IMG/VR virus record: IMGVR_UViG_646311923_000009
DNA from: a virus
Lineage: Duplodnaviria; Heunggongvirae; Uroviricota; Caudoviricetes
DNA: 25,667 bases
Reading direction: 5' to 3' (one strand)
Shown: piece by piece, positions 3,001 to 9,000 of the stretch
Layout of the letters: the number at the start of each line of letters is the position of its first letter
Numbering within the stretch: the first letter of the stretch is position 1
Made by a program: the position numbers

Positions 3001-6000
3001 ATGGCAACAGATCGCGTTCCCGGTTTGCCGGCCAGTCCTGGATATGCTCCCGCCGACAATATTAATGGCCAGGAAATGTTTAAAACAATGATTCTGTTTC
3101 CTAACCATCAAGTGTATATGCTGGCTCAATTACTCAATATCTATGGGTTGAGTTCTACCCAAAGTGGCTCTGTAGTCGCTTCTTCTTACAGTATGTTCAG
3201 GTGTTGCAGGCACAGTTGTGGAGCGTAGATGTGTTGTTGGTTTACCATGCTCTGGTACATAAAAAACGCCAGTGCCATGGTAACCTGATATAGAAACGTT
3301 AATTCCGCGACGTTCAAACTCGGCATAGACGTGTTCTGCTAAAGAACTCTTTTGACCAAATAATGCCCTAGCCAACCAGCCGTTATTCATATTTGCGGAT
3401 TTCTCTATTTCATCAGGAGAGAAGTCTTTGTTTTTTAATATGTTGGCTGAGTTACAGGATGTTAATCTGATATCATCAATCTCATGAAGATTATGTTGAA
3501 CAATGCGGTCGACAATATCTGTCGGCGATAAAAATTCATCTCCACACTTAAGAAGTGGTAGACCAGCAGAACCATCCCCAGACAGATAAATTTTTTTGTA
3601 TTTTCCTGGTGTTAAATCATCTGGCAGGATGGTTTTCATCTCTGTCGCTGTAATACTTATAGCTGCAGCAGCAACAACATCGCTATTACTTGATTGTAGA
3701 TGGCTTTTATTTGCTCCAGGATATGTAAACTCCATTTTCCTTTTATCAAAATCTTGTTTTGTATCATCATTCAGGAATAATAAATCATACGGTTTTTTCC
3801 CCGTTGTGACTCTTGAAACATTTTGGCCAAGAATATTAAGAGTATAGTCATTAACGGATTTCATTCCTAAAAAAACAAGTAATCCTTCTTTCTCTTGCGT
3901 TTTTTCGATTGTTCTCCCTGCTAAAGTTATTGGGATGGATTGAGATTGTTTTGTCGGAACTGATACGCTGGCGCTAATATAAAGACGGCGCAATGGCCGC
4001 CACAGGTTCTTTCTGCTCATCCGGCGTTATTTCTACAGGTAATAATTCAACGCCAGTGTCAGAAGAGGTTGTTACCGGAAGACGCCGCGAAACACGCCCT
4101 TCGTTCTGCCAGAGCCTGAGCCATTTGAAAATAACATTATCATTGACGCCATTTTCTCGTGCAATCTGTGCAACACAAGCTCCAGGTTGTGATGCCAGTT
4201 CAACCATACGAAGTTTGAATTCATTCGAATACTTTTTACGAGGTTCTTTTCGCCAGTCCTGTAATTCCATACTTAGATGTCCGTCTGTATCAGATGGGCG
4301 TCTAAGTTACCAATTCTTGTCTAATGGCTACATACGGCGATCGGTTTACGCTTACGGACAAAAAATCACCTTGCGCTAATGCTCTGTCTCAGGTCACTAA
4401 TCACCTCTAACTCATTGATTAATAGTGGTGCGAAAGATTGGTGAGATATCGTTGCGTAACACTTCCTGGCAGAAGGGACAGGGCAGACTCTCCTTCAGGA
4501 GAATCTGTAATCAGTATACAATCAATGCCAGTTTTTTCGCATTGATTGTAAAATTCATCAATAATGCCTGGAATGTGGATTATATTCTTCTGGGGCGGGC
4601 TTCTTCACTTAGAACATTTTCAATCTTTGGTTTCAGCTTCGTGCAGAATTCGAGCGGCTTCTTGCGTAACATTATACATTGCCTGCTCATCATTACCGCC
4701 AGCCCCAGCAATCGTTAATGCAACCCCAGCATAAATTTCTGGATAGCTATGTGTGAATATATCCAAGGCATTTACATGTTTCTCTTCCATTCCTGCATCA
4801 CAACGAACCTTGAACCGCCCCGGTTTTCCTGGAGAGTGTTTTATCTGTGAACTCAGGCTGCCAGATCATCGTTTCTGATGGAAGCATAATAAGCTTTTTC
4901 TGCTTCTGCCGGAGGGATATGACCCAGCCTTCCCAGCAATCGTCGATTGTTATACCAGTCCACCCACGTGAGTGTGGCCAGTTCCACTTCTGCACGGTTT
5001 TTCCAGCTCTTACGGTGTATTACCTCCGCTTTGTAAAGACCATTGATGCTCTCCGCCATCGCGTTGTCATACGAGTCACCTGTACTCCCTGTTGATGCCA
5101 GCAGTTTTGCTTCTTTTAGTCGCTCCGTATAGGCCAGTGATACATACTGAGAACCTTTATCACTGTGATGGACTGTGCCGGACGGCCGACGGGCCCACAA
5201 CGCCTGCTCCAGTGCATCCAGCACGAATGTCGTTTCCATAGACGATGAGACTCGCCACCCCACGATACATCCGGCAAACACATCAATGATGAACGCCACA
5301 TAGACGAAGCCCTGCCATGTGCTGACGTAAGTAAAATCAGCCACCCACAGCTGGTCAGGACGTTCTGCCACGAACTGACGGTTTACGCGGTCGCCTGCGG
5401 AAACGGCTTTCCGGCTGACGGTAGTACGGACCTTTTTACCCCGGAGAACACCGGCAAGTCCCATAACCGCCATGAGGCGCGCCACTGTACATCTGGCCAC
5501 CCTGATACCTTCGCGTAACAACTGGCGCCAGACTTTACGCACACCGTACACCTGATGATTTTCATCGTATACGCGCTGTATCTCTCTCTTCAGCCAGTCA
5601 TCGCGCTGAGCACGGGCACTGCGTTTATCAGGATGATGTCGCTGTTGCTGACAGTGGTAATACGTTGACGGGGCAATATGCAGTTCACTGCATACCGGTC
5701 CGACCCCGTACTGCTCACGCAGCTTATCCAGCAGCGGCATTATTTTTTCCAGAGGCGGTCGAACTCCGCCTTCGCAAAATAAGCGGAAGCCTGGCGAAGG
5801 ATATCGTTACTGCGGCGCAGTTCACGATTTTCACGTTCCAGCTCTTTCAGACGCTGACGTTCAGCGGTGGTGAGTCCACCATCACCACTCCCGGTATCCC
5901 GCTCATGCTGACGAACCCACACACGCAGAGTCTCTGGTGTACAGCCAATCTTTGGGGCAATGGAACAAATTGCCGCCCATTGTGAGTCATATTCGCCCTG

Positions 6001-9000
6001 ACTTTCCAGAACCATACGAACTGCCCGTTGACGGACCTCGGGGGAAAAACGTGTATTTTTAGTCATCCTGTTTACCTCTTTCTCAGGGAGTTTAGTCTCC
6101 AGGATTCCCGGGGCGGTTCAGCCTCTAAAATTACGGGGCGATTTTCCGGCAACGGACCATCCCCTTCACATAACCCGGCAGTTTCTTTCATTTCATCTGC
6201 TGCAAGCACCTCATTTTTTGTTGGGGTGCTTTTTTTCAATTCAGTAACACAGCACTCCAGTTTTTCAATACGTGATTCAACATCATCTTTTTCTGACCGC
6301 AGTGTTGACGGCGGCATCTTCAGAGAACAAGTAATTCTTCCCGGTAGCTTTCCTTTGTAGGTTATCAACACATCCTGCGCCTCTAAAATTACGGGGCGAT
6401 TTTCCGGCAACGGACCATCCCCTTCACATAACCCGGCAGCAACATCCATGAAAAACTGCTTCGCCTGCTTTTTCGCCTCAGCTTCGTAAAACTCCAGCGT
6501 GGCACCTTCAGTACGGTCAAGACTAATCGCCACATCTGGCAACAACAGTGACGGATACCCACCAATTTCCAGTGCCACAGTAACAGTAATCTTATCCGGG
6601 TAATTATTTATCCCTTTAACAACCAGTTCGTATTTTTTCTTCATCGCTTTACTCTCCCCGCGCCGCCTTACGACGGTCCTCTCTGATTTTGAAATACAGG
6701 TTAGTCAGATATGTCAGCAGCCCAAACAGCAGACTCCCCAGCACGCCTATTGCCGCCCACTGAGACGGAGAGACTTTGTCCAGCAGCTGCAGGAACCAGT
6801 AGCCCGTTCCCACCGCTGACGTGGTGTATGACACACCTGTTGTGATTTTTTCCATCTGGTACATACCCCGTCTCTCGCAATCCGGAAGCTCACAACAACA
6901 GGAGGGGCATCAGCTCACACCGACAGCCCCTGCGCATGGTTACATCATCATTTCGCCGTCAGGCTGAGGCTCACTGCTACCGTCAGGCTGAGACACGACG
7001 CCATCTGAAACAGCACTGTCACCCGCGCCGTCTTCAGGCTCAGGAGCAGCCGGTCCCCCCAGCAGCTCATCCAGAATGGCATCCACTTCAGCATCAAGAC
7101 GCGCCTCAAGATTCTGGCGGAGTTGCTGTTTCAGTGCGCTTCTGACTTCTTCAGAGCGCAGGACGTCCTTCACTGCTTCAGCAGTGACCAGAGATTTTAT
7201 TTCTGACATGGGATTTTCTCGTTGAAAGGTGTTGTTAAGAAAGTTGCTACGAAATGAGAGGCTCTTCGGGTTTTGTTCCGGCTGACTGGCTGGCGCTGAT
7301 TTTTTCCGCCGCCGCGGCATCAATCTTTTTGCGTATATAGTTCCGGATAACCTTATACCCGCCACTTACCAGATATAACGTGCACACCACCGTGCAGAAA
7401 TACAATAAAATAAGCTGTACAAATCTCATTATCCCTCCCGGTTATTGATATGGTGTTGACATCGTTAATACCTGTTGGTTAAAAAAGTGTCCTGCATGTT
7501 TTGCTTTGGATATAACGACATTTGCCGCCGGTTCTGGCTCCTTGTTTTCCCTGCCCCGGCGGCCTTTTTTTCCTGCTTACGGGTTATTCACTTCCACTGT
7601 TATACTTTCAATCAGCACCGGATATGTCGCACCGCTAGTGATATCGGTCACGCGCAATTTGTCTGCCGTAAACGTGCCGACCGGTGACTGTGACAGCATG
7701 AACGGCGTCCCGTCCTTACCATCAATGACCGGCGTCACCTCAATACTGTTGTTACCGGCAAAACGGAAGCCCAGCGTATGCCATTCGTTATCAAATGCGC
7801 CGAATGACCCCAGCTTCGTGTTCTGACCAGCATTTCCCTTGTGGTACATCACATTAAGGTCTGTGGCATCGCTCTGTACGTAAAACGACGCCAGCAGGTT
7901 ATGACCGGCATTACCTTCCAGTGTGACGCCCTGAGGCAGTGAAGAAACCGGCCAGTACAGCGCCAGTGCGTACTGATTAGCTGTCAGTGTGCCATCAACT
8001 TTAAAACGACAACTGATAAGCCCGCCCTTCTCCAGCAGGTCTGCGCCATTACCGGCATCATGCTGCATAAACCACGAGGAACTTCCTGTCTGTTTGGTCC
8101 ACCTCAGCGCCTTACCTCCTGCAGCACCTGCATCATCAACTACCAATGCACGCCCTCCTTCAGCTCCCCATCCCTGCGGATTCAGTAAACCACCTGACTC
8201 TGTTGCACGGTAATAAAGCAGCGTTGTCACTGATTTCCCGTCCGTTGACGGTGTTGATGGTGTGTCCGGTGACGGCTTCTCATCCGGCGGCATCACAACC
8301 TGTTCCCCACCCACCAGTTCAGCCGTCCGTCCTGCATGGAGAAGAATCGCTGAGGCAAGACGGTCAGAAATAATCCCCCTGCGTGCCCATGAGCTGAAAT
8401 GGCTCGCACGGTCTGCTGACGTCCAGTTTGCCGACGTCCGGGAGGCCGCACCGTAATATCCTGATGCCGGAATATCCGGGTCTTCTTCCGGTTTGTTCGT
8501 CGGGACATTTGCTCCGTTCTCATCGGTCATGAACGGCACAAAGTGAATATTCTTTTCCGTTTTGTTTTTGTAACTGCCGTACACCGTCTGGTAAGTGGAT
8601 TCGCTCTTCTGCTTCCAGAAATAAGTTGTGTCTCCACATATCCAGGGAACACCGTCAGCAGAACCACCAGCGCACTGTCCCACCATATCTGCAAGGTCCG
8701 TACGATATTGTTCCACTACTTCTGTAAAACGGGCTGTGTGATTTGCTGGCGTTCCGTCAAAGTCAAATTCCCCCTGCATCCACACCACGGCAAGCAGCAC
8801 ATTTTTCGGGTTCTTTGCCAGCGCGGCTTTTGTACGACCGATGAGATCCTTATACAGCGGCCTGCCCACACCCCAGCGGGTAGAACTCTCTGAGGCACCG
8901 GTCACGTCACTGTATGTTCCATCTGCCCCGGTGGTGAAAGCTGAACCACCACGGCAGCACGGAACCAGAAGAATACCCGCATTCGCCGGTATAAACGGCA

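Follow-up and report, generated by a model that had tools for sequence, protein, structure and literature searches.

An IS629 copy as the probable joint of a 29.5-kb deletion in a Qin-like lambdoid prophage of Escherichia coli

The locus described here lies in a 25,667-nt stretch of viral DNA (IMG/VR record IMGVR_UViG_646311923_000009), which is referred to below at its full length as the window. The window holds a lambda-like, Qin-like lambdoid prophage in ydfJ, and its host type is O45:H2/O103:H2-type Escherichia coli. The prophage carries an intact copy of the insertion sequence (IS) IS629 between the remnant of an effector gene and a truncated lysis-module gene. The first-pass annotation, made from the window alone, had proposed that an IS-mediated adjacent deletion or recombination at this copy removed the late genes. 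Comparison with a relative that has the same prophage without this IS supported that proposal, and the joint itself proved to be composite, containing a 61-nt patch. The IS629 copy probably represents the joint of an IS-associated deletion of approximately 29.5 kb (a rough probability of 0.8).

An intact IS629 copy between espV and ydfR'

The features at the joint are as follows.

4620..4810, minus strand: espV 3' remnant (type III secretion system effector gene), final 63 codons with the stop codon, collinear with the 3' end of espV as found intact in UTAK-6
4811-6120, minus strand: IS629 isoform (IS3 family), intact, 1310 bp, identified from exact ends, open reading frames (ORFs), NF033516 and ALIL
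5740..4853, minus strand: IS629 orfB, 295 aa from ATG, catalytic transposase part; NF033516, E = 4.9e-93
5669-5785, minus strand: ALIL pseudoknot, which stimulates frameshifting in IS3-family elements; Rfam RF01497, score 120.9 bits (gathering score 50)
6066..5740, minus strand: IS629 orfA, 108 aa; NCBIfam NF033516 (IS3 family transposase)
6121..6181: patch of 61 nt abutting the IS end, identical to 6379-6439 in direct orientation
6182..6308: native sequence downstream of ydfR', continuous with UTAK-6 locus position 35112 onward
6309..6644, minus strand: YdfR/DUF1327 gene, truncated (ydfR'); Pfam PF07041
6379..6439: template copy of the patch, inside the ydfR' coding sequence
6649..6864, minus strand: P21-type class II holin; Pfam PF04971, E = 3.6e-33

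The 13-mer TGAACCGCCCCGG begins at 4811 and its reverse complement finishes at 6120, enclosing 1310 bp. The terminal inverted repeats (4811-4835 and 6096-6120) are 25 nt long and 88% complementary, with TG...CA ends. An A6 slippery run lies in the orfA/orfB overlap, and the PGAP annotation gives a fused OrfAB with a programmed frameshift, intact and without a pseudogene call. The claim of a complete element with both ends and both reading frames was thereby borne out by the exact 13-mer ends, NF033516 and ALIL. Copies in O145:H28 and O103 genomes showed 100% identity to this one, and related copies occurred in 4252 of the 5426 complete E. coli genomes that served for all presence and absence counts. 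Compared with the copy annotated as IS629/IS1203 in Sp5 of O157 Sakai, it had 58 differences in 1310 positions and no indels (95.6% identity). By the ISfinder convention, an isoform has at least 95% nucleotide identity to the named IS629 reference, and the window copy lies above this value when the Sakai Sp5 copy is used as the reference. As IS629 subtypes diverge by 4-5% (PMC3271280), the 95.6% identity justifies the call of an intact IS629 isoform. The element shares with IS629/IS1203 of enterohaemorrhagic E. coli (EHEC) and Shigella its length of 1310 bp, its TG...CA ends and inverted repeats, orfA/orfB with a -1 frameshift, and ALIL, but differs by 4-5% from the O157 subtype and lacks the usual 3-4-bp target-site duplication. 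IS629 copies in this lineage are subtype mosaics.

The flanks read ...CACAACGAACCT / IS / GCCTCTAAAATT..., with CCT on the left and GCC on the right. After exact end mapping no direct repeat of 3 or 4 bp was present, as the first-pass annotation had noticed. All five simple IS629 insertions in the loci that we examined carried a duplication of 3-4 bp:

L009, between lysozyme and ydfR' in another prophage: CAG
L005, IS within IS: GAA
L006, espV::IS629 in WL1467: CATC
Sakai Sp5: AAAG
L015, terS::IS629 in WL1277: CCA

The absence of a duplication therefore disfavoured a simple insertion in the window, while the identity of the element was unaffected. Length and ends, ORFs and frameshift, and sequence identity all agreed with IS629; the duplication was the only attribute that failed, and the site was thus recognised as a rearrangement joint. 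We also considered an offset duplication, as CCT recurs at +2..+4 of the right flank. This was rejected because the G before CCT lies outside the IS in all other copies, and the O45:H2 strain FWSEC0003 reads CTC there.

The two flanks belong to unrelated genes, as proposed, and the left remnant can now be named. In genomes with an intact gene, the 531-nt left flank is annotated as 'secretion protein EspV'. The intact gene of strain UTAK-6 encodes 339 aa (L003 5378-6397, where L003 denotes the UTAK-6 locus), and approximately 276 N-terminal codons are missing at the IS junction. On the right, the C-terminal truncation of ydfR' is already present in every relative. In the window, its open frame continues through the patch into the IS (ORF 6072-6644, minus strand, 190 aa), reaching the IS inverted repeat and containing the motif AGLCEGDGPLPENRPVILEA twice, since the 258-nt spacing of the two copies preserves the frame; this open frame is probably without meaning. 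The native sequence at 6182 picks up immediately after the stop codon of a deleted small plus-strand ORF. The holin gene is the last intact late-region gene ahead of the deletion, and its endolysin and Rz partners are gone. It keeps its place downstream of Q and the late promoter region, and prophage induction might kill cells without lysis through this orphan holin.

Comparison with UTAK-6 and sister prophages

Alignment of both flanks to an IS-free relative had been set as the test of the deletion. Window 1-4811 corresponded to L003 758-5569 with 99.94% identity, and window 6180-9071 to L003 35110-38001 with 100% identity. The flanks are thus not contiguous in UTAK-6 but lie approximately 29.5 kb apart, and the intervening DNA (L003 5570-35109, approximately 29,540 bp) is gone from the window. 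On the left the boundary can be shifted by 1 nt, and on the right by 2 nt. The missing interval begins with espV codons 1 to approximately 276, IS2, nleD and an nleG-family gene. It continues with both tail-fibre genes, lom, J, sodC, the tail assembly and tape-measure genes, and the head genes (capsid), and ends with portal, both terminase subunits, ylcI, perC, an Rz-type lysis protein, two small ORFs, lysozyme and an 87-aa plus-strand ORF.

When the missing 791 nt of espV were used as a query, the 40 full-length matches listed (93.4-100% identity) included none from a junction-bearing genome, and only UTAK-6 matched at 100% among them. The absence of an espV 5' match from junction genomes among these matches suggested that the lost DNA is absent rather than relocated. 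In the search for the junction itself, some matches resembled relatives with the left flank next to an IS; these were rejected as an unrelated arrangement with the IS on the opposite side of espS.

Left in the window are int, xis, cI/cro, the genes for replication, Q, and the genes for the nanS-p esterase and the holin. Integrase, immunity, replication and Q functions are therefore kept, whereas none of the endolysin, Rz, terminase, head and tail genes is left, which is the pattern of a cryptic lambdoid prophage. The predicted losses all fell within the UTAK-6 interval, and nleD, nleG and most of espV were lost with them. Because the virion and lysozyme genes are lost, neither virions nor the lysis enzyme can be made by the window prophage.

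Window 3800-7200 was 100% identical to six complete genomes (2011C-4251, SJ7, 2000-3039, 99E2750, UTAK-2, and UTAK-4) and 99.4% identical to FWSEC0003. The junction was present in these seven of the 5426 genomes only. Other strains carried further IS629-associated alleles of this prophage:

WL1467: simple espV::IS629, 60 nt from the window left joint, opposite orientation, another subtype (69 differences), duplication CATC
WL1467: an additional head-tail deletion with tandem IS copies at its bounds
CEC12044, UTAK-14 and WL1277: espV' - IS629 - truncated terminase large subunit
FWSEC0007: rearranged version with four IS copies
PV16-126: espS' - IS629 - L003 34897
O145:H28 strains: IS629 approximately 140 nt further into their espV

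The window IS differed from the copies of sister strains at 29-75 positions, indicating that the window event was independent. Across lineages, espV has been struck by IS629 at at least three positions and in both orientations (L003 5569, 5626-5629, and the O145:H28 site), and it is intact in few genomes. The WL1277 record (L015, NZ_CP193494.1), labelled O121, shares its ydfJ deletion allele with the O103:H2 strains CEC12044 and UTAK-14 and has in addition the terS IS629; its serogroup label may be wrong.

FWSEC0003 (L008 4012-5321, corresponding to window 4811-6122) has the left joint and the patch as in the window, minus the first two patch bases (GC). Its IS is a mosaic: positions 1-775 are as in the window IS, and from position 776 onward it has 19 variants that belong to another IS629 subtype. 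Both changes would be accounted for if a second IS629 had landed 2 nt away (duplication CTC) and the two copies had then recombined. In the window the patch agrees with its template at all 61 nt, so that the window form is older than that of FWSEC0003.

Structure and origin of the composite joint

The joint reads IS / L003 35309-35369 / L003 35112 onward. The last two bases of the patch, AG (6180-6181), are common to the true flank and form a 2-nt microhomology joint, whereas no bases are shared at the IS/patch joint, where the flank begins at 6121. Relatives without the junction, including UTAK-6, have the 61-nt sequence as a single copy (L003 35309-35369), and their sequence to the left of window 6180 differs. 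In the window, the two copies are spaced 258 nt from start to start, so that the formal structure is the end of a 258-bp unit followed by one complete unit. The 61-nt patch at the IS indicates that the joint is not one clean breakpoint and that more than one step, or a complex event, was involved. We examined a diverged second DUF1327 paralogue, present in some phages and in strain A25, as the source of the patch and rejected it, since its identity was 85% over 47 nt compared with 100% for the local ydfR' copy.

The view that the IS629 copy is a deletion joint is supported by the separation of the flanks in UTAK-6, the lack of a target-site duplication, the exact IS end, and the other IS629-bounded deletions in sister strains. 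The exact end with no microhomology at IS/6121 fits a joint made by transposase. In the route that we consider somewhat better than an even chance, a first IS629 would have inserted in or near espV, and transposase would then have joined the orfA-proximal IS end to the remote ydfR' site by 'sloppy' one-ended strand transfer. During repair or replication of this intermediate, a single polymerase template switch may have duplicated 59-61 nt of ydfR', with re-annealing on AG at a point 258 nt upstream. Given a transposase-made joint, we regard such a switch as an evenly balanced possibility. The patch resembles the products of polymerase-theta-type microhomology-mediated end joining (MMEJ) or microhomology template switching, as generally known, in that a short nearby copy lies at a deletion joint with a 2-nt microhomology on one side; it differs in that its other side is an exact transposon end without microhomology.

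Deletions next to IS629 that involve transposase and the IS-excision enhancer (IEE) can be as small as a few nt or exceed 40 kb, and the 'sloppy strand transfer' model, the polymerase/MMEJ activity of IEE, and the role of IS629 behind many EHEC deletions have been described (PMC9943667; bioRxiv 10.1101/2023.06.07.543989). IEE is common in O103:H2, and its presence there is reported in PMC9943667. The iee gene (Sakai ECs_1305, L014 7054-9414) had a match at a coverage of at least 80% in 683 of the 5426 genomes; its homologues are currently named 'TOTE conflict system archaeo-eukaryotic primase domain-containing protein' in RefSeq. The IEE PrimPol-helicase is a candidate helper. The stronger proposal, that IEE itself left the patch in nature through synthesis-dependent end joining or a template switch during an IS629-adjacent deletion, seems improbable. 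As far as the O157 deletions adjacent to IS629 or promoted by IEE are described in the two reports that cite them (Ooka 2009; Kusumoto 2011, as cited in PMC9943667, bioRxiv 10.1101/2023.06.07.543989), the window allele is similar to them in the retained IS with an exact end, the prophage setting, and a size within the range; of its two joints, one has a microhomology (AG) and the other has none. It differs from them as a natural allele in an O45:H2/O103:H2-type background with a 61-nt templated patch.

Several points weigh against this account. We built both hypothetical simple-insertion joints (ydfR...GCC/IS and IS/CCT...espV) as queries, and no simple IS629 insertion at espV L003 5569 or at ydfR L003 35309 was found in the 5426 genomes or, by exact-pattern scans, in metagenome and viral contigs, although such an allele may exist outside these collections. 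The best genome matches covered 51% of the queries and represented known structures or other insertion sites. Either flank, or neither, may thus be the original one, and more than one number and order of steps from the full-length prophage would fit. Moreover, the template switch was inferred from one joint alone. The other deletion joints in the allelic series are clean, without a patch, which indicates that the patch is no regular by-product.

The patch may instead be older than the deletion. A prior 258-bp tandem duplication (L003 35112-35369), cut by an IS629-adjacent deletion, would leave a 61-nt unit end followed by a full unit, exactly the structure and the 258-nt spacing observed, with no coupled template switch; in addition, spontaneous duplications that arise independently of RecA typically show a 2-nt microhomology. 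This origin would require two independent rare events no more than 61 nt apart, and the 35369/35112 joint was absent outside the seven IS-bearing genomes (5426 complete genomes; exact-pattern scans of metagenome and viral contigs). We therefore consider it possible but rather unlikely.

The main rival to a transposase-made joint is RecA-dependent homologous recombination between two direct IS629 copies, one in espV and one beside ydfR', which would leave one hybrid IS with one flank from each parent. Sister strains hold two to four IS629 copies in this prophage in direct orientation, and the CEC12044 joint lies at the exact espV insertion point of WL1467. The mosaic IS at the same joint in FWSEC0003 also indicates that IS-IS recombination occurs in this lineage. 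However, neither parental insertion was found in the collections searched, the window IS is not visibly mosaic given its 100% identity to copies elsewhere, and the patch would be left unexplained and would need a separate duplication event. It is unlikely, though by a modest margin, that the window joint arose in this way. The present data are compatible with adjacent deletion and with IS-IS recombination alike.

We also examined a model in which the outer edge of the patch served as a surrogate IS end in a one-ended transposition of the IS plus 60 nt. The edge is readable as a CA end but has no convincing similarity to the IS629 inverted repeat, and a separate 29.5-kb deletion would still be required; the model was therefore set aside. 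Finally, an IS-independent deletion with a later IS629 insertion at the scar, or an ancestral short form with a late region gained by UTAK-6, is highly improbable: nothing specific favours it beyond the habit of IS629 of inserting in prophage DNA (in O157, prophages hold 62% of its copies; PMC3271280), a 3-4-bp duplication as in the five controls would be expected from a later simple insertion, the truncation points of espV and ydfR' coincide exactly with the IS ends, and the intermediate forms share nested subsets of the UTAK-6 late region with more than 99.4% identity.

The remaining prophage and its biological meaning

According to the RefSeq annotation of 2011C-4251, the region belongs to a lambdoid prophage integrated in ydfJ, and its genes run in the following order.

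Left of the IS: ydfJ', DinI-like gene, nleG7 (frameshifted), 296-aa EspS-like gene, transposase fragment, remnant annotated 'hypothetical, N-terminus missing'
IS and to its right: IS629; ydfR' (C-terminus missing), class II holin, DUF826, DUF1378, SASA esterase, Q antiterminator
After Q: rusA, hokD, paa; replication P, cro, cI; dicB, exonuclease, xis, int; rspB

The cargo in the window comprises the frameshifted nleG7 (2253-2905, plus strand), the AcfC-family adhesin gene paa in the early region (14168-14926, minus strand), and hokD (13674-13829, minus strand). The 296-aa ORF at 3130-4020 (minus strand) is named EspS in other records and hypothetical here, and had no Pfam or NCBIfam match; a fragment of an IS66-family TnpA gene lies directly upstream (3974-4270, minus strand). 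The SASA/NanS-p-type esterase gene (7577-9514, minus strand) is 36 nt shorter than in 2011C-4251 and FWSEC0003 (645 compared with 657 aa), a length polymorphism among prophages that are otherwise near-identical.

The prophage is similar to Qin of K-12, as the latter is generally known, in its ydfJ site and in dicB, ydfA, ydfC, hokD, a ydfT-like Q, ydfR and the holin; both are also defective by loss of morphogenesis genes. It differs from Qin in its EHEC cargo (paa, nanS-p esterase, nleG7, espS-like, and espV) and in having lost its late region recently enough that a full-length sibling, UTAK-6, survives.

IS629-driven decay of EHEC prophages is already well documented and the locus is annotated in public genomes, so that the event is not new in kind. 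The templated patch, as read from one joint, is the only feature for which we found no description in the papers cited here. The window provides a further case, resolved to the base, in which IS629 has reduced a lambdoid prophage with effector genes to a remnant that is fixed and non-inducible. The effector repertoire changed in the same allele: espV, nleD and an nleG were lost with the virion genes, and paa, the frameshifted nleG7, the nanS-p esterase gene and the holin gene were kept. Alleles of this type show such repertoire change and are useful as markers of O45:H2/O103:H2 lineages. The only mechanistic interest lies in the patch, which, if recurrent at other IS629 joints, would point to a polymerase-driven repair step. 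Should it prove to be a footprint of IEE, this would mean that IEE-type repair leaves polymerase-theta-like templated insertions in the genomes of bacteria, a signature that could be mined to trace IEE activity.

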